DNA of 64,000 nucleotides from Psilocybe cubensis (lineage: Eukaryota), in contig CM039007.1 in the NCBI GenBank assembly GCA_017499595.2, positions 1-64,000 on the forward strand, read 5' to 3'. The translations under genes were made by a program, and so were the position numbers. Positions 1 to 59,161 of the stretch are shown here, in pieces; position 1 is the stretch's first letter, and each line of letters begins with the position of its first letter. A model generated the notes under the pieces. The model saw only the letters and a list, made by a program, of their open reading frames with translations, did no database searches and was not told the DNA's origin.

Positions 1-149
1 CTAAACCCTAAACCCTAAACCCTAAACCCTAAACCCTAAACCCTAAACCCTAAACCCTAAACCCTAAACCCTAAACCCTAAACCCTAAACCCTAAACCCT
101 AAACCCTAAACCCTAAACCCTAAACCCTAAACCCTAAACCCTAAACCCT
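1..149 (+). repeat. Terminal telomeric array (CCCTAAA)n = (TTTAGGG)n; left chromosome end
   Basis: About 21 perfect CCCTAAA units from base 1, with the C-rich strand on +. Confidence 0.97.
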
Positions 150-761
150 AAAAAACCCTAACCCTAAACCTAAACCTAAACCCTAAACCCTAAACCCTAA
201 GCCCTAACCTAACCCCAACCCTAAGCTAACTAAGTCTAACCTTAGTAGGAAGTAAGGTAGGCGTGTGAACTTCCGAAAGGCATGTGATTGTGAAGGGCCG
301 GATCTAATTTAGTACATGGGAAAAGTTACTTAGTACCTCGGGAAAAGTTCCTTAGTACCGTGGAAACATTTTTGATGGACCGGATCATGAACTGTCCAAT
401 TAAGATTCACAACAATCAATCAATTGATTGTTAGGTAAGGACCCAGGTAAGCTATTTATACTCTTGACATGAGAATATTCCCATGTCACGGTTACTCGGA
501 GCCACGTAACCAGAGTATTTTATATCCATGTGATTCACATCACAGTCAATAACCCACGATGTCAAAGAACAAAAGTGTTGGATCCACTTTTGACAGGTTA
601 CCATGTGCCACATCGACCCGTGACACTCTGTTCATCAGAGATCTGTCTAACTTGACAATAAACATTGACAGATTTGTGATAGTCGGTAAGATACATGACA
701 GCTGCGCAGCATCACTTCACGCGCTGTCATCGGATGTTCCAGAACATTCCTTCTAAGAATA

Positions 762-931: not shown

Positions 932-2087
932 ATGTCTTCCACTTACTCTGCTGCCTTCTCTCGTGCCATGTCCCCCACCCTGGACGCACTCACCCAGGCT
1001 GTCGTCAACAACACAGTTTTTGGCGTCAACGACGAAGCTGGCCGCCACAACGCCCTCATCGACGAGTTGGCCACTGTCGTCATCAAGAAAATAGCTGAGT
1101 GCCGCTCCATTGACCAGATTGTAGACTGCGTCTTTTTTGACTATCGTGCTGCCCTTAGGGAGTTTCTCCTCAACCTCGCATCGTGGTGCGATAAGAGGGA
1201 AACAGTCAAGGCTAGCCTCGAGCGCCTTGAACTTGCCGTTAGCGCAGGCAACACCCCCAATCGCCTTCGGGTGAAGGCTCCCGAGTTCCAACTTACGAAG
1301 GAATTCGCGGATGCCGGGTCAGCGGAAGCTCTTCGAGTTTCCTCTACGTTCTCCACCGCTCGTGATGTCTTCCAAAAGGCAATCAACGACGGCGCCATTC
1401 AGGCGAAAAAGGACGAACTGGCCTTTTGGGATGATAAATGCGCACTCAATAACTGTTATGAAGCTGCTGCCCTCATCGTTAAGACAACTTACGATGATCG
1501 CAAATCCAGCTATAAGCTCCCCGTTTTCTCTACAGACAACAAGGGAGTTCGTCGAATAACAGATTGGGTAGTGTCACCGCAGAAGAAGGCTGAATGCAGC
1601 GCATTGCAAACCATTTTGCCAGCCATCTTCTCTCATATCAAACAGATTGTCAACTTGCGCCACCGCGCTTTGGCAATCAAGATTGAGAAAAAGCGGTCGA
1701 CTGCGGCAACAGCCGATGTCGAGATGGCCGATGCGACCAAACCAGGTCCATCGATTCAATCCCTTATTGATAAGGGCTTGAATGCACGTCTCAAGAAGCT
1801 CAACCTTGGATCTGTGGGCAAGAAGGCAAGTTCTCGTAACCCTTCACCCATAACTCTGGATACTAATTACTATTCTAATTACCCAGACTTTGTCTGGCCA
1901 GAATTCGTCCAAGGCTCCTCAACCTCAGGCCAAGAAAGCTGGCCCTTCGAAATTCAAACCCTCGTCGACGCCTTCGCAGAAGAAGCCCCAAACCAAGGCT
2001 TCCAACAAGGTCGACAACAAGAAGAAAGGGAAGGGGAGAGCTCCCGTCAAGAACGATCCAAAGGGAAAGGGAAAGGCAAGAGCCTAG
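932..2087 (+). CDS. Predicted spliced ORF1 protein (join 932-1825, 1887-2087; 364 aa) with a Lys-rich C-terminal tail
   Basis: AAG|GCAAGT donor, CTAAT branch and CCCAG acceptor define a 61-nt intron. Splicing joins in frame to the 1890-2087 ORF. Equivalent introns lie at 6991-7051 and 15783-15843. Confidence 0.7.
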
Positions 2088-4462
2088 ACGCGCGGTCTAA
2101 TGTAGTACCTTTTACGTCGGTAAGACCCGCCTTCCCCAACTCTATTCCTGACGATATACTCACCATGACTAAAACAGACGCAGTTTCTTTTGTACACTTA
2201 CATACGCCGATCTCATTCTTGTTGGCTGGCCAGTATCGTAGTAGTGTACACTGTAGTCCTGGTGTGGTGGTCCCTGTAGATATAGCAAATGATTTGTCAC
2301 TCGGACTCAATTATATGTTTTTTACTCTACCTTCTCAAAGTCTGATCATGCAAGCATGGAATGATTTTCAACGAAGAATAAGATGGCGTATCTATTTTTT
2401 GTTTAAGGAAGGCATGAACAAACCTTTTGATCCAGATTACGGAGTAAGCTCAAAAAAGAAAGAGAAACCTCCAGTATTACCGCAATACATGGAACTTGGC
2501 CTTTCGATGGGACGTCGGTACGTGCAACGCACGATCGCAAGTATCCCGGAAGAAGCCCTTACGGAGATGCGAAAGCACGCGTTCTCTCCTAAAAGGGACA
2601 AGATCCGTAAGTTTCTTATCGATAACAACTATGTTATTACGATGACAGATAAGAATCTTGGCCTCGCGGTGTCTGAACGCGACTGGATATTAAGGAATGA
2701 GCTCAATCTTCTTAAAGATGAACGTAACTATGAAGAGTTAGAATTCGAAGTTGCGCAAGAAGTAATGAAGAGCAAAATGATCCAGATGCAAACTCTTGCA
2801 CATACCGTCGAAGATGAACATCTGTTTCTATTTGAACTTGGGTTGTCTCGATTCTTTCTATCGAATGTACCGGAAGACGGATCATCGTTCAAGTACCCTC
2901 AATTTCATGGTATACCTAAAATCCACAAAAAACCTACTGGATTTAGGCCCATAATTCCGTGTCACTCTGTAGTATTTAATCCTGCAGCCAAGTTTGTATC
3001 AAAAGAGCTTAAGCCGATTATTAAATCGACTCCTTCAATCATTCACGGAACGAAGGATCTCTTTACGAGATTAAGCCAATTGCGTATAGACCCCAAACGA
3101 CAATGGTATTTTGTCACCGGGGATGTAGTTGCTTTCTATCCCAATATTCCGTTGGACTTGTGCATCGAAATCGTTTGTAATATGTACGAGGAATGGTTAC
3201 TCAACGCTTCGGAAGAAAACACTGCATTAGCCCATATTAATCCAAATTCGTTAGAGAATAACTTGGTTAAATTGGGCATCTTTAAACGTGCTATCGAGAT
3301 TGGCAATACGCAATTGATAACACAACATGGGTCTAGATATTTTAGACAAAAAAATGGCCTCGCAATGGGCGTCGCGGATTCTCCGGACCTTGCTAACCTC
3401 TTTGGAGCCCATTTTGAAATAAAGTCAAAAATCTTAGACCACCCAAACGTGGCCTTCTATGGAAGGTACATCGACGATTGTTTCGCAATTGTCTACGCCG
3501 AGTCCGAAGCACTTGCACTTAATCTTATTAAAGAAACAATAAAGTTCGATGGTTGTGTTATCGAATGGGCTGTTTCCTCGTCGGGATGTCAATTTCTCGA
3601 TGCTTTCATATTCAAGGAGTCTGGAAAACTTCATTGGAAGCCATTTGTCAAGACAGGAAACAACCGAGAACGAGTTCCATGGGTATCACATCATCCTTTG
3701 GACGTCAAACGTGGCGTCTACATTGGAGAGTTATCCAGGTTAGCCGTGCTATGTAGTACCAAGGAAATCTACATCGGAGCAATTAGAGACCTTAACGCTC
3801 TCTATTTGATGCGCGGTTATCCCGAAAACCTAGTCATGTCTTGGTGTAAGAAGAATATACAAGAACGTTGGGAAAAGCGATTCGCTTTACGAGTCGCAGA
3901 GCACGACGAATCCATTCTTGTACTTAAAACCAGATTTGATCAGGTATGGAATTGGTTTTCAGCTGCTGAACTTGGAAAAACTGTTACCGAGTACTGGTCG
4001 GCATGGTATGAACATGCCGAGAAAGGTTTGTATAGTGCAGACTCGTCCAGACCCCTTATCAAACCAGATCCAAATTACGTTCACGACCTCGATGATGTTC
4101 GCCCGGAGCTGTTCACACAGATCCTCGTGGACGGAGAAACTGAGTTCGTACCGGATTTGAGGAAGATAGGACTACTCGGAAGTCGTTGGATAGTATCGCG
4201 AAAACGCAATACTAATCTTTTCGACCTTGCAAATGTGTGGAAGAAAACAGTCTTTCGTAAACTGGATGAAGACATCGCTGAAAAAGGTGGTGTTGTTCCC
4301 GAAACTCAAAACGTTAATGAAACTTATCATTCTGCTTTAGTTGAAGCTGCTGAACAGATAAGTATCGAAAGTGATAACGAGATAATACTTCATAGACGTT
4401 CAATCTCACAAGAGAGGGAACATCCAGAATTCGGCAGAATATCCAAATCTTACAACCGATGA
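932..4462 (+). CDS. Penelope-like reverse transcriptase ORF (1176 aa if the internal intron is retained); no endonuclease
   Basis: RT motifs FHGIPKIHK, FRPIIP, TGDVVAFYPNIP, RQKNGLAMG, GRYIDDCF and QFLD, plus the thumb-region HHPLDVKRG. Confidence 0.92.
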   Translation: MSSTYSAAFSRAMSPTLDALTQAVVNNTVFGVNDEAGRHNALIDELATVVIKKIAECRSIDQIVDCVFFDYRAALREFLLNLASWCDKRETVKASLERLELAVSAGNTPNRLRVKAPEFQLTKEFADAGSAEALRVSSTFSTARDVFQKAINDGAIQAKKDELAFWDDKCALNNCYEAAALIVKTTYDDRKSSYKLPVFSTDNKGVRRITDWVVSPQKKAECSALQTILPAIFSHIKQIVNLRHRALAIKIEKKRSTAATADVEMADATKPGPSIQSLIDKGLNARLKKLNLGSVGKKASSRNPSPITLDTNYYSNYPDFVWPEFVQGSSTSGQESWPFEIQTLVDAFAEEAPNQGFQQGRQQEEREGESSRQERSKGKGKGKSLDARSNVVPFTSVRPAFPNSIPDDILTMTKTDAVSFVHLHTPISFLLAGQYRSSVHCSPGVVVPVDIANDLSLGLNYMFFTLPSQSLIMQAWNDFQRRIRWRIYFLFKEGMNKPFDPDYGVSSKKKEKPPVLPQYMELGLSMGRRYVQRTIASIPEEALTEMRKHAFSPKRDKIRKFLIDNNYVITMTDKNLGLAVSERDWILRNELNLLKDERNYEELEFEVAQEVMKSKMIQMQTLAHTVEDEHLFLFELGLSRFFLSNVPEDGSSFKYPQFHGIPKIHKKPTGFRPIIPCHSVVFNPAAKFVSKELKPIIKSTPSIIHGTKDLFTRLSQLRIDPKRQWYFVTGDVVAFYPNIPLDLCIEIVCNMYEEWLLNASEENTALAHINPNSLENNLVKLGIFKRAIEIGNTQLITQHGSRYFRQKNGLAMGVADSPDLANLFGAHFEIKSKILDHPNVAFYGRYIDDCFAIVYAESEALALNLIKETIKFDGCVIEWAVSSSGCQFLDAFIFKESGKLHWKPFVKTGNNRERVPWVSHHPLDVKRGVYIGELSRLAVLCSTKEIYIGAIRDLNALYLMRGYPENLVMSWCKKNIQERWEKRFALRVAEHDESILVLKTRFDQVWNWFSAAELGKTVTEYWSAWYEHAEKGLYSADSSRPLIKPDPNYVHDLDDVRPELFTQILVDGETEFVPDLRKIGLLGSRWIVSRKRNTNLFDLANVWKKTVFRKLDEDIAEKGGVVPETQNVNETYHSALVEAAEQISIESDNEIILHRRSISQEREHPEFGRISKSYNR

Positions 4463-4511
4463 AAAGAATACTAGCGCGTAAGGCGTAAAGCATTAGAAAA
4501 AAACCCTAACC

Positions 4512-4574
4512 GTAAGTATTCCTTGCTACAAAGTAACAAACATCTACTTACAAGCAACACATTGGATTAAATAG
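4512..4574 (+). other. 63-nt spliceosomal intron interrupting a telomeric tract (also at 9680-9742, 13071-13133 and 18472-18534)
   Basis: AAACCCTAACC|GTAAGT...ATAG|CTAAACC. Precisely spliced versions are present at 163/164 and 5325/5326. Confidence 0.88.
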
Positions 4575-5172
4575 CTAAACCTAAACCTAAACCCTAAACC
4601 CTAAACCCTAAGCCCTAACCTAACCCCAACCCTAAGCTAACTAAGTCTAACCTTAGTAGGAAGTAAGGTAGGCGTGTGAACTTCCGAAAGGCATGTGATT
4701 GTGAAGGGCCGGATCTAATTTAGTACATGGGAAAAGTTACTTAGTACCTCGGGAAAAGTTCCTTAGTACCGTGGAAACATTTTTGATGGACCGGATCATG
4801 AACTGTCCAATTAAGATTCACAACAATCAATCAATTGATTGTTAGGTAAGGACCCAGGTAAGCTATTTATACTCTTGACATGAGAATATTCCCATGTCAC
4901 GGTTACTCGGAGCCACGTAACCAGAGTATTTTATATCCATGTGATTCACATCACAGTCAATAACCCACGATGTCAAAGAACAAAAGTGTTGGATCCACTT
5001 TTGACAGGTTACCATGTGCCACATCGACCCGTGACACTCTGTTCATCAGAGATCTGTCTAACTTGACAATAAACATTGACAGATTTGTGATAGTCGGTAA
5101 GATACATGACAGCTGCGCAGCATCACTTCACGCGCTGTCATCGGATGTTCCAGAACATTCCTTCTAAGAATA

Positions 5173-5235
5173 GCCACTGAAGAGTCTATAAAGACGAAAG
5201 GGCTGGCTGCTGATAACAATCAACAGCCCTCTGGC
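5173..5235 (+). ncRNA. Hammerhead ribozyme (variant A)
   Basis: Same sequence as 762-824. Confidence 0.92.
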
Positions 5236-5924
5236 CTTCTTTCCATTTAACTCACAGTTTAAACAAGTCGCTCGCACCTCGCTTCGCTCGGTGCTCGCTC
5301 CCCCCCTAAACCCTAAACCCTAACCCTAAACCTAAACCCTAAACCCTAAACCCTAAACCCTAACCTAACCCCAACCCTAAGCTAACTAAGTCTAACCTTA
5401 GTAGGAAGTAAGGTAGGCGTGTGAACTTCCGAACGGCATGTGATTGTGAAGGGCCGGATCTAATTTAGTACATGGGAAAAGTTACTTAGTACTTCGGGAA
5501 AAGTTCCTTAGTACCGTGGAAACATTTTTGATGGACCGGATCATGAACTGTCCAATTAAGATTCACAACAATCAATCATTCTATTGTTTGATTGTTAGGT
5601 AAGGACCCAGGTAAGCTATTTATACTCTAGACATGTGAATATTCCCATGTCGCGGTTACTCGGAGCCACGTAACCAGAGTAATCTATATCCATGTGATTC
5701 ACATCACAGTCAATAACCCACGATGTCAAAGAACAAAAGTGTTGGATCCACTTTTGACAGGTTACCATGTGCCACATCGACCCGTGACACTCTGTTCATC
5801 AGAGACCTGTCTAACTTGACAATAAACATTGACAGATTTGTGATAGTCGGTAAGATACATGACAGCTGCGCAGCATCACTTCACGCGCTGTCATCGGATG
5901 TCTAGAACATTCCTTCTAAGAATA

Positions 5925-5987
5925 GCCACTGAAGAGTCTATAAAGACGAAAGGGCTGGTTGTTGGGATCCCCCAACAGCCCTCTGGC
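5925..5987 (+). ncRNA. Hammerhead ribozyme (variant B)
   Basis: Same core. The distal part of stem III is TTGGG/ATCC/CCCAA. Confidence 0.92.
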
Positions 5988-6096
5988 CTTCTTTCTATTT
6001 CAAACTCACAGTTTAAACTAGTCGCTCGCACCTCGCTTCGCTCGGTGCTCGCTCCCCCCCTAAACCCAACGACTTTGCTATCACCCATCAGTTACC

Positions 6097-9000
6097 ATGT
6101 CATCCCAATACTCTGCTGCATTCTCTCGTGCCATGTCCCCTACCCTGGACGCACTCACCCAGGCCGTCGTCAACAACACTGTCTTCGGCGTCAACGATGA
6201 AGCAGGCCGCCATAACGCTCTTATCGACGAGCTGGCCACTGTGGTCATCAAAAAAATAGCTGAGTGCCGCTCCGTTGACCAAGTCATAGACTGCGTCTTT
6301 TTTGACTATCGTGCTGCCCTCAGGGAGTTTCTCCTCAACCTCGCATCGTGGTGCGACAAGAGGGAAACAGTCAAGGCTAGCCTCGAGCGCCTTGAATCTG
6401 CCGTTAGCGCAGGCAACACGCCCAATCGCCTTAAGGTGAAGGCACCCGAGTTCCAACTTACGAAGGAATTCGCGGATGCCGGGTCAGCGGAGGCTCTTCG
6501 AGTCTCCACTACGTTCTCTTCCGCTCGTGATGCCTTCCAAAAGGCAATTAACGACGGCGCCGTTCAGGCGAAAAAGGACGAGCTGGCTTTTTGGGATGAT
6601 AAATGCGCGCTCAACTCTTGCTACGAAGCTGCTGCCCTCATCGTTAAGGCAACTTACGATGATCGCAAATCCAGCTACAAGCTCCCTGTTTTCTCTACAG
6701 ACAACAAGGGAGTTCGACGTATAGCAGAGTGGGTAGTGTCTCCGCAAAAGAAAGCCGAATGCAGTGCGCTGCAAACTATACTGCCGGCGATCTTTTCTCA
6801 TATCAAACAGATTGTCAACATGCGCCACCGCGCCTTGGCAATTAAGATTGAGAAAAAGCGGACGACTGCGGCAACAGCCGATGTCGAGATGGCCGATGCG
6901 ACCAAACCAGGTCCATCGATTCAATCCCTTATTGATAAGGGCTTGAATGCACGTCTCAAAAAGCTCAACCTTGGATCTGTGGGCAAGAAGGCAAGTTTTC
7001 GTAACCCTTCACCCATAATTCTGGACACTAATTATTACTCTAATTACCCAGACTTTGTCTGGCCAGAATTCGTCCAAGGCTCCTCAACCTCAGGCCAGGA
7101 AAGCTGGCCCTTCGAAACCCAAGTCGTCGTCGACGCCTTCGCAGAGGAAGCCTCAAACCAAGGCTTCCAACAAGGTCGACAACAAGAAGAAAGGGAAGGG
7201 GAGAGCTCCCGTCAAGAACAACGATCCAAAGGGAAAGGGAAAGGCAAGAGCCTAGACGCGCGGTCTACTGTAGCATCATTTACGTCGGTGAGACCCGCCT
7301 TCCCCAACTCTATTCCTGACGATATACTCACCATGACTAAAACAGACGCAGTTTCTTTTGTACACCTCAATACCCCGATTTCATTCTTATTGGCTGGCCA
7401 GTATAGATCTAGTGTACACTGTAGTCCTGGTGTTTCGGTCCCTGTTGATGTAGCAAATGATTTATCTCTTGGACTCAATTATATGTTTTTTACACTGCCT
7501 TCTAAAAATCTGATCATGCAAGCATGGAATGATTTTCAACGAAGAATAAGATGGCGTATCTATTTTTTGTTTAAAGAAGGCATGAATAAACCTTTCGATC
7601 CAGACTATGGAGTAAGCTCTAAAAAGAAAGAGAAACCTCCAATGTTACCGCAATTTATGGAACTTGGCCTTTCAATGGGACGTCGGTACGTTATTAAAAC
7701 GATCGCAAGTATCCCGGAAGAAGCCCTTAAAGAGATGCGAAAGCACGCGTTCTCTCCTAAAAGGGACAAGATCCAAAAGTTTCTTTTCGATAACAACTAT
7801 GTTATTACGATGACAGATAAGAATCTTGGCCTCGCGGTGTCTGAACGCGACTGGATATTAAGGAATGAGCTCAATCTTCTTGAAGATGAACGCAACTACG
7901 AAGAGTTAGAATTCGAAGTTGCGCAAGAAGTTATGAAGAGCAAAATGATTCAGATGCAAACTCTCGCACGTACCGTCGAAGATGAACATCTGTTTCTATT
8001 TGAACTTGGGTTGTCTCGATTCTTTCTATCGAATGTACCGGAAGACGGATCATCGTTCAAGTATCCTCAATTTCATGGTATACCTAAAATCCACAAGAAA
8101 CCTACTGGATTTAGGCCCATAATTCCGTGTCACTCTGTAGTATTTAATCCTGCAGCCAAGTTTGTATCAAAAGAGCTTAAGCCGATTATTAAATCGACTC
8201 CTTCAATCATTCACGGAACGAAGGATCTCTTTACGAGATTAAGCCAATTGCGTATAGACCCCAAACGACAATGGTATTTTGTCACCGGGGATGTAGTTGC
8301 TTTCTATCCCAATATTCCGTTGGACTTGTGCATCGAAATCGTTTGTAATATGTACGAGGAATGGTTACTCAACGCTTCGGAAGAGAACACTGCATTAGCC
8401 CATATTAATCCAAATTCGTTAGAGAATAACTTGGTTAAATTGGGCATCTTTAAACGTGCTATCGAGATTGGCAATACGCAATTGATAACACAACATGGGT
8501 CTAGATATTTTAGACAAAAAAATGGCCTCGCAATGGGCGTCGCGGATTCTCCGGACCTTGCTAACCTCTTTGGAGCCCATTTTGAAATAAAGTCAAAAAT
8601 CTTAGACCACCCAAACGTGGCCTTCTATGGAAGGTACATCGACGATTGTTTCGCAATTGTTTACGCCGAGTCCGAAGCACTTGCACTTAATCTTATTAAA
8701 GAAACAATAAAGTTCGATGGTTGTGTTATCGAATGGGCTGTTTCCTCGTCGGGATGTCAATTTCTCGATGCTTTCATATTCAAGGAGTCTGGAAAACTTC
8801 ATTGGAAGCCATTTGTCAAGACAGGAAACAACCGAGAACGAGTTCCATGGGTATCACATCATCCTTTGGACGTCAAACGTGGCGTCTACATTGGAGAGTT
8901 ATCCAGGTTAGCCGTGCTATGTAGTACTAAGGAAATCTACATCGGAGCAATTAGAGACCTTAACGCTCTCTATTTGATGCGCGGTTATCCCGAAAACCTA

Positions 9001-9630
9001 GTCATGTCTTGGTGTAAGAAGAATATACAAGAACGTTGGGAAAAGCGATTCGCTTTACGAGTCGCAGAGCACGACGAATCCATTCTTGTACTTAAAACCA
9101 GATTTGATCAGGCATGGAATTGGTTTTCAGCTGCTGAACTTGGAAAGACTGTTACCGAGTACTGGTCGGCATGGTATGAACATGCCGAGAAAGGTCTGTA
9201 TAGTGCAGACTCGTCCAGACCCCTTATCAAACCAGATCCAAATTACGTTCACGACCTCGATGATGTTCGCCCGGAGCTGTTCACACAGATCCTCGTGGAC
9301 GGAGAAACTGAGTTCGTACCGGATTTGAGGAAGATAGGACTACTCGGAAGTCGTTGGATAGTATCGCGAAAGCGCAATACTAATCTTTTCGACCTTGCAA
9401 ATGTGTGGAAGAAAACAGTCTTTCGTAAACTGGATGAAAACATCGCTGAAAAAGGTGGTGTTGTTCCCGAAACTCAAAACGTTAATGAAACTTATCATTC
9501 TGCTCTAGTTGAAGCTGCTGAACAGATAAGTATCGAAAGTGATAACGAGATAATACTTCATAGACGTTCAATCTCACAAGAGAGGGAACATCCAGAATTC
9601 GGCAGAATATCCAAATTTTACAACCGATGA
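6097..9630 (+). CDS. Penelope-like RT ORF, copy 2 (1177 aa)
   Basis: Near-identical to copy 1, with all RT motifs intact. Confidence 0.92.
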   Translation: MSSQYSAAFSRAMSPTLDALTQAVVNNTVFGVNDEAGRHNALIDELATVVIKKIAECRSVDQVIDCVFFDYRAALREFLLNLASWCDKRETVKASLERLESAVSAGNTPNRLKVKAPEFQLTKEFADAGSAEALRVSTTFSSARDAFQKAINDGAVQAKKDELAFWDDKCALNSCYEAAALIVKATYDDRKSSYKLPVFSTDNKGVRRIAEWVVSPQKKAECSALQTILPAIFSHIKQIVNMRHRALAIKIEKKRTTAATADVEMADATKPGPSIQSLIDKGLNARLKKLNLGSVGKKASFRNPSPIILDTNYYSNYPDFVWPEFVQGSSTSGQESWPFETQVVVDAFAEEASNQGFQQGRQQEEREGESSRQEQRSKGKGKGKSLDARSTVASFTSVRPAFPNSIPDDILTMTKTDAVSFVHLNTPISFLLAGQYRSSVHCSPGVSVPVDVANDLSLGLNYMFFTLPSKNLIMQAWNDFQRRIRWRIYFLFKEGMNKPFDPDYGVSSKKKEKPPMLPQFMELGLSMGRRYVIKTIASIPEEALKEMRKHAFSPKRDKIQKFLFDNNYVITMTDKNLGLAVSERDWILRNELNLLEDERNYEELEFEVAQEVMKSKMIQMQTLARTVEDEHLFLFELGLSRFFLSNVPEDGSSFKYPQFHGIPKIHKKPTGFRPIIPCHSVVFNPAAKFVSKELKPIIKSTPSIIHGTKDLFTRLSQLRIDPKRQWYFVTGDVVAFYPNIPLDLCIEIVCNMYEEWLLNASEENTALAHINPNSLENNLVKLGIFKRAIEIGNTQLITQHGSRYFRQKNGLAMGVADSPDLANLFGAHFEIKSKILDHPNVAFYGRYIDDCFAIVYAESEALALNLIKETIKFDGCVIEWAVSSSGCQFLDAFIFKESGKLHWKPFVKTGNNRERVPWVSHHPLDVKRGVYIGELSRLAVLCSTKEIYIGAIRDLNALYLMRGYPENLVMSWCKKNIQERWEKRFALRVAEHDESILVLKTRFDQAWNWFSAAELGKTVTEYWSAWYEHAEKGLYSADSSRPLIKPDPNYVHDLDDVRPELFTQILVDGETEFVPDLRKIGLLGSRWIVSRKRNTNLFDLANVWKKTVFRKLDENIAEKGGVVPETQNVNETYHSALVEAAEQISIESDNEIILHRRSISQEREHPEFGRISKFYNR

Positions 9631-10341
9631 AAAGAATACTAGCGCGTAAGGCGTAAAGCATTAGAAAAAAACCCTAACCGTAAGTATTCCTTGCTATAAA
9701 GTAACAAACATCTACTTACAAGCAACACTTTGGATTAAATAGCTAAACCTAAACCCTAAACCCTAAACCCTAAACCCTAACCTAACCCCAACCCTAAGCT
9801 AACTAAGTCTAACCTTAGTAGGAAGTAAGGTAGGCGTGTGAACTTCCGAACGGCATGTGATTGTGAAGGGCCGGATCTAATTTAGTACATGGGAAAAGTT
9901 ACTTAGTACTTCGGGAAAAGTTCCTTAGTACCGTGGAAACATTTTTGATGGACCGGATCATGAACTGTCCAATTAAGATTCACAACAATCAATCATTCTA
10001 TTGTTTGATTGTTAGGTAAGGACCCAGGTAAGCTATTTATACTCTAGACATGTGAATATTCCCATGTCGCGGTTACTCGGAGCCACGTAACCAGAGTAAT
10101 CTATATCCATGTGATTCACATCACAGTCAATAACCCACGATGTCAAAGAACAAAAGTGTTGGATCCACTTTTGACAGGTTACCATGTGCCACATCGACCC
10201 GTGACACTCTGTTCATCAGAGACCTGTCTAACTTGACAATAAACATTGACAGATTTGTGATAGTCGGTAAGATACATGACAGCTGCGCAGCATCACTTCA
10301 CGCGCTGTCATCGGATGTCTAGAACATTCCTTCTAAGAATA

Positions 10342-10404
10342 GCCACTGAAGAGTCTATAAAGACGAAAGGGCTGGTTGTTGGGATCCCCCAACAGCCCTC
10401 TGGC
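10342..10404 (+). ncRNA. Hammerhead ribozyme (variant B)
   Basis: Same sequence as 5925-5987. Confidence 0.92.
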
Positions 10405-10523
10405 CTTCTTTCTATTTCAAACTCACAGTTTAAACTAGTCGCTCGCACCTCGCTTCGCTCGGTGCTCGCTCCCCCCCTAAACCCTAAACCCTAAACCCTA
10501 AACCCTAAACCCTAAACCCTAAA

Positions 10524-10601
10524 GCCTTCTTTCTATTTCAAACTCACAGTTTAAACTAGTCGCTCGCACCTCGCTTCGCTCGGTGCTCGCTCCCCCCCTA
10601 A
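10524..10601 (+). mobile_element. ~78-nt pLTR 3'-end fragment flanked by telomeric repeats
   Basis: Starts GCCTTCTTTCT, 2 nt downstream of the predicted hammerhead cut site, and ends at CCCCCCCTAA. Confidence 0.85.
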
Positions 10602-10615
10602 CCCTAAACCCTAAA

Positions 10616-13600
10616 TCCAAAGGGAAAGGGAAAGGCAAGAGCCTAGATGCGCGGTCTAATGTAGTACCTTTTACGTCGGTGAGACCCGCCTTCCCCAACT
10701 CTATTCCTGACGATATACTCACCATGACTAAAACAGACGCAGTTTCTTTCGTACACTTACATACTCCAATATCATTCTTGTTGGCTGGCCAGTATCGTAG
10801 TAGTGTACATTGTAGTCCTGGTGTTTCTGTCCCTGTTGATGTAGCAAACGATCTCTCTCTCGGACTTAATTATATGTTTTTCACTCTGCCTTCTAAAAGT
10901 CTGATCATGCAAGCATGGAATGATTTCCAACGAAGAATAAGATGGCGTATCTATTTTTTGTTTAAGGAAGGCATGAATAAACCTTTTGATCCAGATTATG
11001 GAGTAAGCTCAAAAAAGAAAGAGAAACCTCCTGTATTACCGCAATATATGGAACTTGGCCTTTCGATGGGACGTCGGTACGTGCAACGCACGATCGCAAG
11101 TATCCCGGAAGAAGCCCTTACGGAGATGCGAAAGCACGCGTTCTCTCCTAAAAGGGACAAGATCCGTAAGTTTCTTATCGATAACAACTATGTTATTACG
11201 ATGACAGATAAGAATCTTGGCCTCGCGGTGTCTGAACGCGACTGGATATTAAGGAATGAGCTCAATCTTCTTGAAGATGAACGTAATTACGAAGAGTTAG
11301 AATTCGAAGTTGCGCAAGAAGTTATGAAGAGCAAAATGATTCAGATGCAAACGCTCGCACGTACTGTCGAAGATGAACATCTGTTTCTATTTGAACTTGG
11401 GTTGTCTCGATTCTTTCTATCGAATGTACCGGAAGACGGATCATCGTTCAAGTATCCTCAATTTCATGGTATACCTAAAATCCACAAGAAACCTACTGGA
11501 TTTAGGCCCATAATTCCGTGTCACTCTGTAGTATTTAATCCTGCAGCCAAGTTTGTATCAAAAGAGCTTAAGCCGATTATTAAATCGACTCCTTCAATCA
11601 TACACGGAACGAAGGATCTCTTTACGAGATTAAGCCAATTGCGTATAGACTCCAAAAGACAATGGTATTTTGTCACTGGAGATGTAGTTGCTTTCTATCC
11701 CAATATTCCGTTGGACTTGTGCATCGAAATCGTTTGTAGTATGTACGAGGAATGGTTACTCAACGCTTCGGAAGAAAACACTGCATTAGCCCATATTAAT
11801 CCAAATTCGTTAGAGAATAACTTGGTTAAATTGGGCATCTTTAAACGTGCTATCGAGATTGGCAATACGCAATTGATAACACAACATGGGTCTAGATATT
11901 TTAGACAAAAAAATGGCCTCGCAATGGGCGTCGCGGATTCTCCGGACCTTGCTAACCTCTTTGGAGCCCATTTTGAAATAAAGTCAAAAATCTTAGACCA
12001 CCCAAACGTGGCCTTCTATGGAAGGTACATCGACGATTGTTTCGCAATTGTTTACGCCGAGTCCGAAGCACTTGCACTTAATCTTATTAAAGAAACAATA
12101 AAGTTCGATGGTTGTGTTATCGAATGGGCTGTTTCCTCGTCGGGATGTCAATTTCTCGATGCTTTCATATTCAAGGAGTCTGGAAAACTTCATTGGAAGC
12201 CTTTTGTCAAGACAGGAAACAACCGAGAACGAGTTCCATGGGTATCACATCATCCTTTGGACGTCAAACGTGGCGTCTACATTGGAGAGTTATCCAGGTT
12301 AGCCGTGCTATGTAGTACCAAGGAAATCTACATCGGAGCAATTAGAGACCTTAACGCTCTCTATTTGATGCGCGGTTATCCCGAAAACCTAGTCATATCT
12401 TGGTGTAAGAAGAATATACAAGAACGTTGGGAAAAGCGATTCGCTTTACGAGTCGCAGAGCACGACGAATCCATTCTTGTACTTAAAACCAGATTTGATC
12501 AGGTATGGAATTGGTTTTCAGCTGCTGAACTTGGAAAAACTGTTACCGAGTACTGGTCGGCATGGTATGAACATGCCGAGAAAGGTTTGTATAGTGCAGA
12601 CTCGTCCAGACCCCTTATCAAACCAGATCCAAATTACGTTCACGACCTCGATGATGTTCGCCCGGAGCTGTTCACACAGATCCTCGTGGACGGAGAAACT
12701 GAGTTCGTACCGGATTTGAGGAAGATAGGACTACTCGGAAGTCGTTGGATAGTATCGCGAAAACGCAATACTAATCTTTTCGACCTTGCAAATGTGTGGA
12801 AGAAAACAGTCTTTCGTAAACTGGATGAAGACATCGCTGAAAAAGGTGGTGTTGTTCCCGAAACTCAAAACGTTAATGAAACTTATCATTCTGCTTTAGT
12901 TGAAGCTGCTGAGCAGATAAGTATCGAAAGTGATAACGAGATAATACTTCATAGACGTTCAATCTCACAAGAGAGGGAACATCCAGAATTTGGCAGAATA
13001 TCCAAATCTTACAACCGATGAAAAGAATACTAGCGCTTAAGGCGTAAAGCATTAGAAAAAAACCCTAACCGTAAGTATTCCTTGCTATAAAGTAACAAAC
13101 ATCTACTTACAAGCAACACATTGGATTGAATAGCTAAACCTAAACCTAAACCCTAAACCCTAAACCCTAAACCCTAACCTAACCCCAACCCTAAGCTAAC
13201 TAAGTCTAACCTTAGTAGGAAGTAAGGTAGGCGTGTGAACTTCCGAACGGCATGTGATTGTGAAGGGCCGGATCTAATTTAGTACATGGGAAAAGTTACT
13301 TAGTACTTCGGGAAAAGTTCCTTAGTACCGTGGAAACATTTTTGATGGACCGGATCATGAACTGTCCAATTAAGATTCACAACAATCAATCATTCTATTG
13401 TTTGATTGTTAGGTAAGGACCCAGGTAAGTTATTTATACTCTAGACATGTGAATATTCCCATGTCGCGGTTACTCGGAGCCACGTAACCAGAGTAATCTA
13501 TATCCATGTGATTCACATCACAGTCAATAACCCACGATGTCAAAGAACAAAAGTGTTGGATCCACTTTTGACAGGTTACCATGTGCCACATCGACCCGTG

Positions 13601-13878
13601 ACACTCTGTTCATCAGAGACCTGTCTAACTTGACAATAAACATTGACAGATTTGTGATAGTCGGTAAGATACATGACAGCTGCGCAGCATCACTTCACGC
13701 GCTGTCATCGGATGTCTAGAACATTCCTTCTAAGAATAGCCACTGAAGAGTCTATAAAGACGAAAGGGCTGGTTGTTGGGATCCCCCAACAGCCCTCTGG
13801 CTACTTTCCATTTAACTCCCAGTTTAAACTAGTCGCTCGCACCTCGCTTCGCTCGGTGCTCGCTCCCCCCCTAAACCC
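10616..13878 (+). mobile_element. Family-1 copy 3, 5'-truncated and capped by telomeric repeats; RT frame open to 13021
   Basis: CCCTAAA joins directly to TCCAAAGGGAAAGGG (ORF1/RT boundary). The 3' pLTR is complete. Confidence 0.9.
13739..13801 (+). ncRNA. Hammerhead ribozyme (variant B, stem I extended to TAGCCA/TGGCTA)
   Basis: Core and all three stems are intact. Confidence 0.92.
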
Positions 13879-13910: not shown

Positions 13911-14088
13911 CTTCACGCGCTGTCATCGGATGTCTAGAACATTCCTTCCAAGAATAGCCACTGAAGAGTCTATAAAGACGAAAGGGCTGGTTGTTGGGAT
14001 CCCCCAACAGCCCTCTGGCCTTCTTTCTATTTCAAACTCACAGTTTAAACTAGTCGCTCGCACCTCGCTTCGCTCGGTGCTCGCTCCC
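13911..14088 (+). mobile_element. ~180-nt pLTR 3' fragment including a hammerhead (13957-14019)
   Basis: Flanked by CCCTAAA tracts on both sides. Confidence 0.85.
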
Positions 14089-14139: not shown

Positions 14140-17100
14140 CCTAAACCCTAAACCCTAAGCCCTAACCTAACCCCAACCCTAAGCTAACTAAGTCTAACCT
14201 TAGTAGGAAGTAAGGTAGGCGTGTGAACTTCCGAAAGGCATGTGATTGTGAAGGGCCGGATCTAATTTAGTACATGGGAAAAGTTACTTAGTACCTCGGG
14301 AAAAGTTCCTTAGTACCGTGGAAACATTTTTGATGGACCGGATCATGAACTGTCCAATTAAGATTCACAACAATCAATCAATTGATTGTTAGGTAAGGAC
14401 CCAGGTAAGCTATTTATACTCTTGACATGAGAATATTCCCATGTCACGGTTACTCGGAGCCACGTAACCAGAGTATTTTATATCCATGTGATTCACATCA
14501 CAGTCAATAACCCACGATGTCAAAGAACAAAAGTGTTGGATCCACTTTTGACAGGTTACCATGTGCCACATCGACCCGTGACACTCTGTTCATCAGAGAT
14601 CTGTCTAACTTGACAATAAACATTGACAGATTTGTGATAGTCGGTAAGATACATGACAGCTGCGCAGCATCACTTCACGCGCTGTCATCGGATGTTCCAG
14701 AACATTCCTTCTAAGAATAGCCACTGAAGAGTCTATAAAGACGAAAGGGCTGGCTGCTGATAACAATCAACAGCCCTCTGGCTACTTTCCATTTAACTCA
14801 CAGTTTAAATTAGTCGCTCGCACCTCGCTTCGCTCGGTGCTCGCTCCCCCCCTAAACCCAACGACTTTGCTATTATCCATCAGCCACTATGTCATCCCAA
14901 TACTCTGCTGCTTTCTCTCGTGCCATGTCCCCCACCCTGGACGCACTCACCCAGGCCGTCGTCAACAACACCGTCTTCGGCGTCAACGATGAAGCAGGCC
15001 GCCATAACGCTCTGATCGACGAGCTGGCCACTGTGGTCATCAAAAAAATAGCTGAGTGCCGCTCCGTTGACCAAGTCATAGACTGCGTCTTTTTTGACTA
15101 TCGTGCTGCCCTTAGGGAGTTTCTCCTCAACCTCGCATCGTGGTGCGATAAGAGGGAAACAGTCAAGGCTAGCCTCGAGCGCCTTGAATCTGCCGTTAGC
15201 GCAGGCAACACACCCAATCGCCTTAAGGTGAAGGCACCCGAGTTCCAACTTACGAAGGAATTCGCGGATGCCGGGTCAGCGGAGGCTCTTCGAGTCTCCA
15301 CTACGTTCTCTACCGCTCGTGACGCCTTCCAAAAGGCAATTAACGACGGCGCCGTTCAGGCGAAAAAGGACGAGCTGGCTTTTTGGGATGATAAATGCGC
15401 GCTCAACTCTTGCTACGAAGCTGCTGCCCTCATCGTTAAGGCAACTTACGATGATCGCAAATCCAGCTACAAGCTCCCTGTTTTCTCTACAGACAACAAG
15501 GGAGTTCGACGTATAGCAGAGTGGGTAGTGTCTCCGCAAAAGAAAGCCGAATGCAGTGCGCTGCAAACTATACTGCCGGCGATCTTTTCTCATATCAAAC
15601 AGATTGTCAACATGCGCCACCGCGCCTTGGCAATTAAGATTGAGAAAAAGCGGATGACTGCGGCAACAGCCGATGTCGAGATGGCCGACGCGACCAAACC
15701 AGGTCCGTCGATTCAATCCCTTATTGATAAGGGCTTGAATGCACGTCTCAAGAAGCTCAACCTTGGATCTGTGGGCAAGAAGGCAAGTTTTCGTAACCCT
15801 TCACCCATAATTCTGGATACTAATTATTACTCTAATTACCCAGACTTTGTCTGGCCAGAATTCGTCCAAGGCTCCTCAACCTCAGGCCAGGAAAGCTGGC
15901 CCTTCGAAACCCAAGTCGTCGTCGACGCCTTCGCAACGCAAGCCTCAAACCAAGGCTTCCAACAAGGTCGACAACAAGAAGAAAGGGAAGGGGAGAGCTC
16001 CCGTCAAGAACAACGATCCAAAGGGAAAGGGAAAGGCAAGAGCCTAGACGCGCGGTCTACTGTAGCATCATTTACGTCGGTGAGACCCGCTTTCCCCAAC
16101 TCTATTCCTGACGATATACTCACCATGACTAAAACAGACGCAGTTTCTTTCGTACACTTACATACTCCAATATCATTCTTGTTGGCTGGCCAGTATCGTA
16201 GTAGTGTACATTGTAGTCCTGGTGTTTCTGTCCCTGTTGATGTAGCAAACGATCTCTCTCTCGGACTTAATTATATGTTTTTCACTCTGCCTTCTAAAAG
16301 TCTGATCATGCAAGCATGGAATGATTTTCAACGAAGAATAAGATGGCGTATCTATTTTTTGTTTAAGGAAGGCATGAATAAACCTTTTGATCCAGATTAT
16401 GGAGTAAGCTCAAAAAAGAAAGAGAAACTCCCAGTATTACCGCAATACATGGAACTTGGCCTTTCGATGGGACGTCGGTACGTGCAACGCACGATCGCAA
16501 GTATCCCGGAAGAAGCCCTTACGGAGATGCGAAAGCACGCGTTCTCTCCTAAAAGGGACAAGATCCGTAAGTTTCTTATCGATAACAACTATGTTATTAC
16601 GATGACAGATAAGAATCTTGGCCTCGCGGTGTCTGAACGCGACTGGATATTAAGGAATGAGCTCAATCTTCTTGAAGATGAACGTAACTACGAAGAGTTA
16701 GAATTCGAAGTTGCGCAAGAAGTGATGAAGAGCAAAATGATACAGATGCAAACGCTCGCACGTACTGTCGAAGATGAACATCTGTTTCTATTTGAACTTG
16801 GGTTGTCTCGATTCTTTCTATCGAATGTACCGGAAGACGGATCATCGTTCAAGTATCCTCAATTTCATGGTATACCTAAAATCCACAAGAAACCTACTGG
16901 ATTTAGGCCCATAATTCCGTGTCACTCTGTAGTATTTAATCCTGCAGCCAAGTTTGTATCAAAAGAGCTTAAGCCGATTATTAAATCGACTCCTTCAATC
17001 ATACACGGAACGAAGGATCTCTTTACGAGATTAAGCCAATTGCGTATAGACTCCAAAAGACAATGGTATTTTGTCACTGGAGATGTAGTTGCTTTCTATC

Positions 17101-19272: not shown

Positions 19273-19287
19273 TAACCCTAAAACCCT

Positions 19288-19369
19288 TGGCCTTCTTTCC
19301 ATTTAACTCACAGTTTAAACAAGTCGCTCGCACCTCGCTTCGCTCGGTGCTCGCTCCCCCCCTAAACCC
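19288..19369 (+). mobile_element. 82-nt pLTR fragment beginning exactly at the hammerhead cleavage site
   Basis: AAACCCT|TGGCCTTCTTTCC...CCCCCCCTAAACCC matches 821-902. Confidence 0.88.
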
Positions 19370-19387
19370 TAAACCCTAAACCCTAAG

Positions 19388-22724: not shown

Positions 22725-23550
22725 GGCAGCGACAGGAGGCGAGTAGAGGCAGCGCGGCGGCAGCGACAGGCGGCGACGGCGGGACGACAGGCGGCGACGG
22801 CGGAATGACAGGCGGGGAGGGGAGGCGGCAGTGGCAGCGGCGGCCCGGTGTGGCGGCGCAACAACACGCAGCAGAGTGCGTGTCGTGGTGGGCGGCGAGT
22901 GGACGCGACGGCGGGACGACGCGCGGTGACGTCGTGACGACAGGCGGCGACGGCGGGACGACAGGCGGCGACGGCGGGACGACAGGCGTTGACAGCGGAA
23001 TGACAGGCGGCGAGGCAGGCGGCAGCGGCAGCGGCGGCCCGGTGTGGCGGCGCAACAACACGCAGCAGAGTGCGTGTCGTGGTGGGCGGCGAGTGGACGC
23101 GACGGCGGGACGACGCGCGGTGACGTCGTGACGACAGGCGGCGACGGCGGGATGACACGCGCTGACGGCGGAATGACAGGCGGCGAGGGAAGGCGGCAGC
23201 GGCATGACAGGGGACGAGGAGAGGCGGCAGCAGCAGCAGCGGCACGGGTGTGGCGGCGCAACAACACGCAGCAGAGTGCGTGTTGTGGTGGGCGGCGACT
23301 AGACGCGACGGCGGGACGACGCGCGGTGACGTCGTGACGACAGGCGGCGACGGCGGGATGACACGCGGTGACGGCTGAACGACAGGCGTCGAGTGGAGGT
23401 GGCGGCAGCAGCAGCGGCCCGGAGGTGGCAGCGCAACAACATGCAGCGGCAAGCGCAGGCGTCGGGCAGACGGCGAGCGCAAGCTTTGGGACGGCGAGCG
23501 CTGGCGTTGGGACGGCGAGCGCAAGCTTTGGGACGGCGAGCGCTGGCATC
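22725..23550. repeat. GC-rich nested tandem repeats (~190-200 bp unit x3 built from GGCGACGGCGGGACGACA-like subunits)
   Basis: GGTGTGGCGGCGCAACAACACGCAGCAGAGTGCGTGT recurs near 22847, 23041 and 23247. Confidence 0.85.
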
Positions 23551-23865
23551 GGGAGACAGGCGGGAGGCCGGCCTCCAGTGCCTGTCAAAAATTTATTTTT
23601 AGACGGAGGCCGGCCTCCAGTGCCTGTCAAAAGTTATTTTTAGACGGAGGCCGGCCTCCAGTGGCCTCCATCAATTTGGAGGCCGGCCTCCATAAATTAC
23701 ACATTTAATTACGTAGCACCTCCGTATGTACAAAATAAAATATTTTGAAAGTGTATTTGGGGGTTTTTGGGGTCCAGGAATCCGAATCTGGCATCAGATT
23801 TCAGGAATTCTGAACAGGAGGCCCAATGCAACGAAGGCCCCCCCTTCGGGGGGGAATAAGCCTAG
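23550..23865 (+). mobile_element. Terminus of a large DNA transposon (copy 1), superfamily unresolved
   Basis: Four GGAGGCCGGCCTCC palindromes, then a C7-TTC-G7 hairpin (23838-23854) and AATAAGCCTAG. The same end occurs at 41700-42121, and homology stops abruptly there. Confidence 0.75.
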
Positions 23866-26033: not shown

Positions 26034-26879
26034 AGCAGCACACGCTTAGATGTGTAAGGGTCTACACATAGGCCTTCTGCGGCGTGTCTAAACTAGACGT
26101 TTAATGCTAAAACCTGGTAATTCCTCTTCTGTTGTTGTATGACTTCGTCGAGGTTCTGTCCTGCTAGTTTGGGAGTGTAATTAGATTTCCCTTGGGGTCG
26201 CCCATCTAGTAAAGATCAGGCAGTACGCTGGAAACAGCTGGTCTGGGCCTTAGGGTATCCAGTCAGTGACTGCTCCAACGTCCCGATTCCGAAAGGACAA
26301 AGGTGGTTCGACTCGTGAACGAATGAAAATGCATTACTCTGATGGCTTGCCATAGCCGTAATGGATAAGTTCAGCACTCTTGCGTTATAATATTATTCCT
26401 AACGAAAACCTATATTTGTTTTCACAGGACTTACGGTCCAACCGCGCTCGTCGATGAGGGTATCGGCGAATATTCTTGGGAAGCGGTGTCCACATAACCA
26501 GTGGTAGAGAGTTTTTAACACATTCTAAAAAAACCCTAACCGTAAGTCGACTCGATTAATCTCGAGATACTTTGTTGTATTGATTATTCGGCGGTTTTGG
26601 CTTTAGCTAACCCTAAACCCTAAACCCTAAACCCTAAATGCCCTAACCCTACTAGCGTGGTAGGGTTGTCACATGACGTGATGAGTCACGCGACCTAGTA
26701 AGTCACATGACTCGGCCGGCATTTCGGCGATCAAGCCGAAATTCAAGCGGAGTTTAAAATTCGGAGATATTACTAATCCTCGGAGAAATTGCCAAACTTC
26801 GGAACAACAAAGGTGAAAACTCGCTCCGAGGTTTCTTTAACTTCGGACCTCGGATTAATATAGGTAAAATGGCTATATA

Positions 26880-26949
26880 TGGACCTGATGAGCCTTATAA
26901 AAAGGCGAAAAAGTGGAAGGGAGCTTCTCCAAGCCCCCACTTTTGTCCA
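26880..26949 (+). ncRNA. Type I hammerhead ribozyme of family 2; predicted cleavage after 26944 (UUU)
   Basis: TGGAC-CTGATGA-GCCTT/ATAAA/AAGGC-GAAA-AAGTGG...CCACTT-TT-GTCCA. Confidence 0.88.
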
Positions 26950-27015
26950 CAAGCCTTAGGCCATCCAGCCTTTTCTAACCAACTCGCAGCTCGCTTCGCT
27001 CGCTGCTCGTTGGGC

Positions 27016-59136: not shown

Positions 59137-59161
59137 ATTTCGGGCAGCAGCGCCAGTGGCA

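Follow-up and report, generated by a model that had tools for sequence, protein, structure and literature searches.

The window analysed here, 64,000 nucleotides of Psilocybe cubensis DNA, opens with about 21 perfect CCCTAAA units on the plus strand (positions 1–149). Because it is the C-strand that stands on the plus strand at the window start, this is the left end of a chromosome with a 7-mer (TTTAGGG) telomere. Behind the terminal telomere, one element family is arrayed head to tail, with its sense strand on plus and with interspersed telomeric tracts, all in the same orientation. All features described below lie on the plus strand.

The outermost element, copy 1, begins with a 14-nt exon remnant (e1′, 150–163, AAAAAACCCTAACC) that is fused straight to a pLTR-like tail, T_up (164–902). 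The tail is followed by an open reading frame (ORF) of 1176 amino acids (932–4462), which encodes a reverse transcriptase (RT) whose predicted fold resembles that of telomerase. The stop codon is separated from the inner tail by a 34-nt 3′ untranslated region (UTR), a telomere-like exon end (e1, 4497–4511, AAAAAAACCCTAACC), and an intron of 63 nt whose donor directly adjoins this exon end (4512–4574, GTAAGT..TAG). The inner tail, T_down (4575–5313), opens with a second telomeric tract (e2, 4575 to about 4640) and has its 3′ end at 5303–5313. T_up and T_down of copy 1 are 100% identical, and each contains a hammerhead ribozyme motif, with the core at about 766–820 in T_up (predicted cleavage after 820) and the motif at 5152–5236 in T_down (predicted cleavage after 5231).

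About two telomeric repeats past the 3′ end of copy 1, and before T_up of copy 2, stands AAACCCTAACC (5315–5325), which is consistent with a spliced e1′ remnant. Copy 2 (5326–10484) comprises T_up (5326–6067), an ORF that extends to 9630, the intron (9680–9742), and T_down (9743–10484), and its two tails are again 100% identical. It is followed by a mini-copy (10524–10597), which runs from the predicted hammerhead cut (within 2 nt) to the end of T and has telomeric repeats on both sides. In copy 3 (10615–13878), the ORF is 5′-truncated and carries a telomeric-repeat cap, the intron (13071–13133) is kept, and T_down starts at 13134. A 177-bp 3′ fragment of T (13912–14088) lies between telomeric tracts, and its hammerhead was uncleaved in the template. 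Copy 4 (14150–19276) has an ORF that extends to 18422, the intron at 18472–18534, and T_down at 18535–19276; its tails differ in their flanks only, and the 5′ end of its T_up lies inside the e2 tract, merging into perfect repeats. A second mini-copy (19287–19372) begins at the predicted hammerhead cleavage site. Further inward lies a member of a second family, with an RT ORF fragment of 739 amino acids (23814–26033) whose 5′ side is broken by a repeat common to 41829–42122. This family 2 element has the same exon end AAAAAAACCCTAACC (26527–26541), an intron of 65 nt (26542–26606, GTAAGT..TAG) with the hairpin CTCGA-ttaatc-TCGAG at 26551–26566, and a tail (26607–27044) composed of an e2 tract (26607–26651), a hammerhead (26868–26964), and 3′ telomeric repeats (27016–27044).

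Self-comparison of the window showed that a tail of about 740 bp, T, stands on both sides of each full-length body, with an identity between copies of 95.4% to 100%. The first 60 nt or so of T are degenerate telomeric repeats; then come 22-bp repeats, a type I hammerhead, about 80 nt more, and the end CCCCCCCTAAACCC. The hammerhead has a long helix III, which fits the account of ribozymes in fungal Penelope-like elements (PLEs) in the available text of PMC4209133, and its core was found in every T of the window. Rfam matches to the hammerhead were sub-threshold, with 23–25 bits in family 1 and 19.7 bits (E 0.067) in family 2, and none reached the gathering score in the window and 20 related loci. 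A hammerhead descriptor gave 18 plus-strand matches in 15 of 80 related loci (the best 80 of 130) and none on the minus strands; in the window it caught four and overlooked five of the eight family 1 copies with the same core. The start of each mini-copy falls no more than 2 nt from the predicted ribozyme cut, which is indirect evidence that the ribozyme cleaves in vivo and that the RT runs off at the cut end. A candidate TATA box, CTATAAAG at about 775, was rejected, as this sequence forms the helix II loop of the hammerhead.

The ORF of copy 1 is 98–99% identical to P. cubensis proteins in UniRef and NCBI, and 245 relatives were found at E ≤ 1e-3 among 8000 candidates scored. Pfam hmmscan of the window proteins P0001–P0003 assigned no family and left the RT unrecognised even at E ≤ 10; precomputed PF00078 matches are listed for relatives of the ORF. 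A PDB sequence-profile search with the window protein gave no useful match, and a scan of viral contigs found no relatives. With the AlphaFold model of residues 430–1100 (pLDDT 78, pTM 0.71) as the query, Foldseek ranks 1–10 in the PDB were all TERT (best 7lma_A, E 6.5e-8), followed by a group II intron RT, then by the G2L4 RT and picobirnavirus polymerase, and then by LINE-1 and R2. The residues T572 D573 K574 N575 L576 G577 showed no variation in two sets of 12 and 19 aligned sequences; they form the DKN motif, a conserved motif upstream of the RT core that is named in the available part of PMC13159263. No Pfam match to a GIY-YIG endonuclease was found in the ORF, which stops about 75 residues past its last conserved block; because Pfam overlooked the RT as well, its silence on the endonuclease is weak evidence. 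The 5′ ends of the array face the chromosome end and carry a host-repeat cap, and the 3′ ends carry C-strand repeats. Taken with the predicted fold and with the hammerhead in the terminal repeat, this telomeric placement, its orientation, and the C-strand repeats at the 3′ end identify the array as a PLE of the Coprina kind that is apparently endonuclease-less. Coprina-type elements add themselves to chromosome ends. According to the available portions of PMC8557442 and PMC6431247, Coprina and Athena elements have an RT nearest to telomerase, lack the endonuclease, are telomeric with the 5′ end toward the chromosome end, have a host-repeat cap, and form head-to-tail arrays.

An earlier, sequence-only reading of this DNA had placed an intron inside a telomeric tract, at the same position in two diverged families, and this proved exact. 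In family 1, the exon end (4497–4511) is followed by the intron (4512–4574), and the tract resumes at 4575 with CTAAACCTAAACC. In family 2, whose RT is 44% identical to that of family 1, the same 15-nt exon end precedes the intron, and the tract continues from 26607 with CTAACCCTAAACCC. The exon flank and donor are identical, as had also been claimed: the 17-mer AAACCCTAACCGTAAGT occurs exactly five times in the window, always on the plus strand, at 4501, 9669, 13060, 18461, and 26531, where shuffles lead one to expect 0.01 occurrences. The split arrangement is present in four family 1 copies and in one family 2 copy. The further claim that the intron interiors are unrelated stood for these two families, as their alignment score was −16 against a shuffle mean of −12.9, with 424 of 500 shuffles scoring at least as high. 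It did not extend to other families in the sense of featureless interiors, since a hairpin with a TAATC loop, described below, is common to many of them.

We then turned to relatives from metagenome contigs, where 252 stretches were matched, 130 encoded a relative, and the best 80 were kept. Some of these loci are closely related to each other, and their best-segment identity to the window protein was 31–66%. An intron in the telomeric tract was found in 53 of the 80 loci (best 80 of 130), and the motif is conserved well past the two families in which it had been noticed. This count comprises 42 loci recognized by the loosest of three detectors and 11 added otherwise, via the looser detector only or by eye. 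The strict detector reported the arrangement in 17 of the 80 loci. The looser one reported 25, with no match on the minus strands and one match in 20 shuffles, and the loosest one reported 42, with 46 matches on the plus strand as opposed to none on the minus strands; 20 shuffles yielded 23. Of the remaining loci of this set, 17 had less than 600 nt after the ORF match and were left unjudged, and 10 with a tract or enough flank showed no clear intron.

Depending on the family, the donor follows CCCTAACC, CCCTAAC, CCCTAA, CCCTA, CCCT, CCC, or CCCTAAACC. There are seven splice phases among the families, and hosts with 6-mer and 7-mer telomeres are both represented. The register shift over the junction was zero in 20 of 29 strict matches, where chance predicts about one in six or seven, and perfect 7-mer continuity was seen in L057 and L058–L062. 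Because the register is kept over the junction more often than expected by chance, this comparison of loci points to selection acting on the joined telomeric tract. The 37 distinct introns are 49–67 nt long and have canonical donors, including GTAAGT (13), GTGAGT (8), and GTATGT (6). Their acceptors are TAG (26), CAG (10), and AAG (1), and a CTRAY-like branch site is present in 30 of the 37. The 63-nt segment is a genuine spliceosomal intron with ordinary fungal signals. In eleven loci (L018, L027, L031, L032, L035, L040, L051, L048, L053, L057, and L068), an upstream intron stands before the short exon. The string TATAG upstream of the short exon was rejected as a TATA box, as in several families it is the acceptor of this second, upstream intron.

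The two ends of copy 1 differ in their splicing state. Positions 150–170 read AAAAAACCCTAACC joined to CTAAACC, which corresponds to 4498–4511 joined to 4575 onwards. When 153–910 was aligned with 4498–5321, the sole internal difference was a 63-nt gap, 4512–4574, and the break showed no microhomology. Such fused junctions were also found in the related loci. In L009 (position 4766), an unusual exon end, of the L008/L010 variant, is fused to the tract after a T end and about two repeats (24 of 24 nt match), and in L010 (position 4669), the L009-variant exon end is fused to the tract in the same arrangement, with no mismatch in 24 nt. The first 10 nt of the L035 contig are its own exon sequence, joined directly to the tract, and its downstream junction keeps the intron. 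L004 is similar to these three and ambiguous. In L042, a 57-kb DNA contig, the upstream tail is without exactly a 65-nt GTAAGA..TAG segment, which the downstream tail keeps; this segment contains the hammerhead core and is a second, non-telomeric intron. Body-to-tail junctions always looked different: the intron is kept at five of five in the window, and among the 80 loci (best 80 of 130), the fused junctions of 40 curated introns never stand directly after a body.

The retro-copied exon-exon junctions in window positions 150–170, L009, L010, and L035 show, as DNA records of past RNAs, that the intron is evidently spliced in vivo. By the same token, they and the kept introns show that spliced and unspliced RNAs were both reverse-transcribed. 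The sequence-only reading had held that splicing joins the flanks into one C-strand tract, and this joined form is present as DNA at all four places and, in a less distinctive form, at window positions 5315–5332. Wherever the copies are informative, spliced RNA is the source of the outer repeat, and the inner one comes from RNA that kept the intron. The upstream tail of L037 keeps the intron; the upstream repeat of this locus extends into the 3′ UTR. Many of the metagenome contigs are circular assemblies, in which outer and inner repeats are indistinguishable.

The exon remnant at distal ends is 14 nt long in copy 1, at most 11 nt in copy 2, and 13–17 nt in L009 and L010. Beyond the remnant or the tract come either telomerase-type repeats or about two repeats and then the preceding T end. 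The copy 2 junction (5315–5325) is consistent with splicing and less distinctive than that of copy 1. It is also readable as variant telomeric repeats, and such variants occur at other linkers.

As to where copying starts, the window contains eight element 3′ junctions, belonging to copies 1–4, the two mini-copies, the 177-bp T fragment, and the family 2 element. All eight lie at the end of T and are followed by variable telomeric repeats; neither the donor nor the long tract that follows the acceptor has any. Judged by these junctions, which show the same position throughout, reverse transcription evidently starts at the end of T and never at the split tract. The tract after the acceptor was thus rejected as a priming site on the basis of 0 of 8 junctions.

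This distribution also bears on an alternative that the sequence-only reading had offered, in which the first step of splicing would cut the transcript at the donor and leave an RNA whose end is AAACCCUAACC; in the version considered here, this end would pair with the G-overhang and prime reverse transcription. It is known that the spliceosome performs 3′-end processing of a fungal telomerase RNA, that of fission yeast, and the likeness is that there, too, a splice donor adjoins a telomere-related RNA sequence. Moreover, the C-strand motif of the present elements ends the exon directly at a strong donor. However, the elements described here differ from the fission-yeast RNA in undergoing complete splicing, as documented by the whole exon-exon junctions that were retro-copied, and in having no element end at the donor. 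The location of all eight 3′ junctions at the end of T likewise argues against first-step cleavage, and the branch sites and acceptors are ordinary. Genomic copies ending in body, AAACCCTAACC, and telomere were not seen. We thus regard this route as very improbable, and this part of the earlier proposal was not upheld.

The intron interiors of many families share a structural feature. The sequence TAATC was present in 17 of 39 distinct introns, compared with a mean of 4.5 and a maximum of 10 in 1000 shuffles. It usually lies 12–17 nt past the donor, in the loop of a hairpin whose stems are wholly different between families. For the analysis of covariation, 16 sequences were chosen solely by a YTAATC loop at a curated intron. 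In these, 78.6% of the cells of a 7-bp stem were paired as compared to 47.2 ± 3.9% after shuffling, with none of 500 shuffles as high, and the covariation score of the hairpin was 0.856 against 0.252; in slid controls, 31–43% were paired. Seven TAATC-loop matches after GTNNGN elsewhere in the loci had only 0–1 flanking base pairs. Hairpins with a TAAT loop were found in 24 of the 39 introns, compared with 4.2 ± 1.9 after shuffling. In the window, the hairpin is present in family 2 (26551–26566) and absent from family 1. It is also absent from the nearest relatives of family 1 (L001, L002, L005–L010, and L014), which keep the intron and its retention. A reading of the motif as a palindromic kissing loop was rejected, because CTAATC loops are not self-complementary.

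How could one insertion come to carry a spliced and an unspliced end? We favor, with moderate confidence, the view that spliced RNA supplies the outer tail and thereby gives the cDNA an end of G-strand repeats, which would serve as a telomere seed or primer. The suggestion of a telomere seed had already been made from the sequence, and it fits the joined form at distal ends, which directly abuts either repeats of the telomerase type or the preceding copy's 3′ end. That splicing acts as a switch, as the same reading proposed, is conjectural. According to this scheme, the G-overhang would prime at the T end of unspliced RNA, the genomic template, from which the RT would copy T, the intron, and the body. 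The RT would then move to a spliced RNA, which it could reach through homology within T or by jumping from one ribozyme-cut end to another. This second RNA could be a leader transcript that, like that of Penelope, begins in the short first exon; alternatively, any spliced RNA might serve, with the surplus cDNA later cut back to the first suitable telomeric seed. The product would end in the exon remnant, the cDNA end being an uninterrupted G-strand run. Telomerase could extend the G-strand end, as at copy 1, or this end could prime on the RNA of the next element, giving the junctions of about two repeats. The tails are identical within a copy and up to about 4% apart between elements, which suggests that every transposition makes the outer T anew, with a spliced version of the inner T as its model. 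The inner T would be the source of the outer one, because the intron cannot be regained. The intronic TAATC hairpin may mark the unspliced template RNA or keep the RNA unspliced.

A more elaborate form of this proposal divides the roles between two isoforms: the template would be marked by the hairpin or kept unspliced by it, and the spliced isoform would serve only to rebuild the outer repeat. Through its in-phase exon junction, the cDNA would end in a perfect G-strand run, a de novo telomere seed for telomerase and a primer for the next element. We put this division of labor forward as a tentative possibility. Retroviral packaging signals, located downstream of the major splice donor, are present only in unspliced RNA and select the genomic template, and in the telomeric arrays of the Drosophila elements HeT-A and TART, each element can supply its neighbour with a promoter or leader that lies in its own 3′ end. 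Both belong to element classes unrelated to PLEs and provide an analogy only.

Two other copying schemes were considered and rejected. Rolling-circle copying of one circular unit RNA explains identical tails, but not one spliced and one unspliced junction, and faithful copying of an RNA with two tails cannot keep the tails identical while copies diverge.

Several observations stand against a seed made by splicing or against the steps proposed for it. The tract after the acceptor is already telomere-like for about 60 nt, and splicing adds only 7–17 nt, so a seed does not strictly need splicing. The 5′ end of copy 4 lies inside the tract without a visible exon remnant, and the scheme offers no reason for the RT to stop inside the exon remnant. 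The upstream intron before the short exon in eleven loci argues against a transcription start inside this exon, at least for read-through RNAs. Last, there are the upstream tail of L037 with its intron, the ten loci with a tract or enough flank and no clear intron, and the family nearest to window family 1, which is without the TAATC hairpin.

The main rival to a spliced telomere seed is a plain leader intron of the Penelope type, a pLTR 5′-UTR intron as in Penelope or Chlamys. Transcription would begin a few bases before it, the intron near the cap would be spliced out, and its role would be post-transcriptional, in export or translation, or promoter-linked. The spliced outer tail would then be a by-product without any seeding, and the telomeric flanks would be there only because the pLTR opens with a telomeric tract. 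Precedents exist: in the accessible part of PMC2377424, Penelope transcription starts 46 nt before a 75-bp pLTR intron, most transcripts are spliced, and deletion of the intron abolishes reporter expression while the RNA is not lowered. A pLTR 5′-UTR intron is likewise described for Chlamys-3_cRei in the available text of PMC8557442. It would also suit a nearby start site that the outer tails end 7–17 nt before the junction. However, the register is held at seven splice phases and in 6-mer and 7-mer hosts, which points to selection on the joined repeat itself, and what remains of the exon is in each case its telomere-like part. In several families, moreover, the short exon has its own upstream acceptor. 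On balance, we find a plain leader intron rather unlikely.

A different emphasis would make the hairpin the main content of the intron, as a signal carried by unspliced RNA that either marks the template or, when bound by protein of the element, blocks splicing, with the telomeric flanks being secondary. The strong covariation, the invariant loop at 12–17 nt past the donor, and the 0–1 flanking pairs at the seven TAATC matches elsewhere all speak for a dedicated signal, as does the keeping of the intron at all body-to-tail junctions. Yet family 1 and its nearest relatives have no hairpin and still keep both the intron and its retention, and from these sequences, such a primary role appears quite improbable. 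Least credible of all is that the segment would not be an intron, but a 63-nt insertion in the inner tail or a slippage loss in the outer tail. Both flanks are repetitive, which favors slippage in principle. However, in copy 1, L009, L010, and L035, the missing segment starts precisely with GT and stops precisely with AG, and the two sides of the break share no bases, which makes slippage unlikely. The second, non-telomeric intron of L042 is likewise exact, and conservation of the donor, branch, and acceptor signals contrasts with divergent interiors. We consider the chance of an insertion or slippage to be close to negligible.

PLEs are the closest relatives of telomerase, and the locus provides DNA-level snapshots of how such elements work, as it holds spliced and unspliced templates in one insertion, run-off copies at ribozyme cuts, and constant linker junctions of about two repeats. 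The splice junction is held in telomeric register over many fungal lineages with 6-mer and 7-mer telomeres. Three processes become directly testable: the formation of the terminal repeats, the choice of the template RNA, and the hand-over of the element end to telomerase. If the spliced seed is real, the formation of chromosome ends by the sister lineage of telomerase would include a spliceosome-dependent step, and if the unspliced template is indeed kept by the hairpin, this would explain the long-puzzling retention of introns in PLEs. How PLEs build their terminal repeats and keep their introns is called unknown in the available text of PMC8557442 and PMC3846280. Within the accessible portions of PMC8557442, PMC6431247, PMC4209133, PMC3846280, PMC2377424, PMC13159263, and the preprint 10.64898/2026.07.22.740005, we found no description of an intron inside a telomeric tract; the supplements, Gladyshev and Arkhipova 2007, and Arkhipova et al. 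2017 may have one.

Among the known systems, Penelope of Drosophila virilis is similar in having a short intron in its terminal repeat, tens of bases past the start and beside the hammerhead; its spliced and unspliced RNAs coexist, and its genomic copies keep the intron. Penelope differs from the elements described here in its endonuclease, its insertion into chromosome interiors, and its lack of telomeric flanks (available parts of PMC2377424 and PMC4209133), and these parts contained no report of Penelope repeats that differ in splicing state. Chlamys-3_cRei from Chlamydomonas resembles the present family in its transcription start in the pLTR and in a 5′-UTR intron across the pLTR boundary; it differs in the length of this intron (398 bp), in being endonuclease-positive, and in having no telomeric repeats (PMC8557442, text as available). 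The Coprina and Athena elements share the reverse-complement telomeric repeats that adjoin a 3′ hammerhead and an RT nearest to telomerase. However, their accounts, in the portions of PMC8557442 and PMC6431247 that were accessible, give several short 3′ telomeric stretches and no in-phase intron, outer tail from spliced RNA, or intronic hairpin.

A possible counterpart is Coprina-1_Alen from Ascochyta lentis, whose ORFs lie between direct repeats of 63 bp and 255 bp. According to the available text of PMC13159263, 104 bp separate the 3′ repeats, and these 104 bp are reported between the 5′ repeats only for the copy on chromosome 13. The authors leave the 104 bp uninterpreted and do not call them an intron, and our comparison is by description only. 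As described there, the upstream repeat of Coprina-1_Alen, other than in the chromosome 13 copy, is without the internal segment, like the outer tails of the present elements.

The tail of the Penelope-like elements, T, carries a predicted hammerhead ribozyme, and two mini-insertions of 74-86 bp flanked by telomeric tracts (window 10524-10597 and 19287-19372) bear on its activity. Both run only from the predicted cleavage site as far as the end of T. They look like run-off cDNAs from ribozyme-cut RNA, which points indirectly to ribozyme cleavage in vivo. At L042, one of the related metagenome loci, the downstream tail holds a 65-nt GTAAGA..TAG segment (8454-8518) enclosing the hammerhead catalytic core, and the upstream tail is missing exactly this segment (at 3860-3870). 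Because the core lies within the removable segment, splicing and self-cleavage are predicted to be mutually exclusive fates of the RNA in this family.

When two elements directly adjoin, a linker of only about two telomeric repeats separates the T end of one from the exon remnant of the next (window 5304-5325; related loci L009:4748-4778 and L010:4651-4681); at other window junctions the number is 6-10. The shortness of the two-repeat linkers suggests direct priming or template switching between successive element RNAs, without telomerase. The host telomere itself is built of a 7-mer, CCCTAAA (window 1-152), whereas the end of the exon and some of the tract following the acceptor are 6-mer-like, CCCTAACC (window 4504-4511/4575-4640); among the organisms that harbour the related metagenome loci, both 6-mer and 7-mer telomeres occur.

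An additional intron of 52-82 nt lies just 5' of the telomere-like exon in L018, L027, L031, L032, L035 (for example, L035:4400-4486), L040, and L051, and likewise in L048, L053, L057, and L068; in these loci the exon is a micro-exon of 12-39 nt. The interior of this second upstream intron is conserved, showing either CAGACGGTATTAACCG or a branch site of the form TACTAACC, and could fold into a small hairpin whose loop is TATTAA. The intron is absent from both window families. Every tail also carries, at the equivalent place, a 22-bp unit, TTAGTACCTGGGAAAAGTTAC, repeated in tandem 2.3-2.7 times (window 309-366, 4720-4777, and 5465-5514), which may serve as a promoter element or bind a protein.

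Deeper in the window, an open frame of 930 codons (19373-22165), which had no match in Pfam, begins directly at the telomeric tract 19360-19387, and this start resembles a chromosome end that was healed at an earlier time. It is followed by GC-rich tandem repeats of 21, 42, and 194 bp (22747-23663). A ~300-bp repeat is present at 23563-23866 and, with 91% identity, at 41829-42122, upstream of a pol ORF of copia type that contains motifs of integrase and RT (42070-45381). The repeat also adjoins and truncates the RT ORF of family 2, the second, diverged element family, so that the two ORFs share their first 17 residues. The window further contains two inverted copies of a sequence of about 1.08 kb, 91.9% identical to each other (58093-59159 and 62919-64000), and diverged direct repeats (46385-49193 and 59162-61412).
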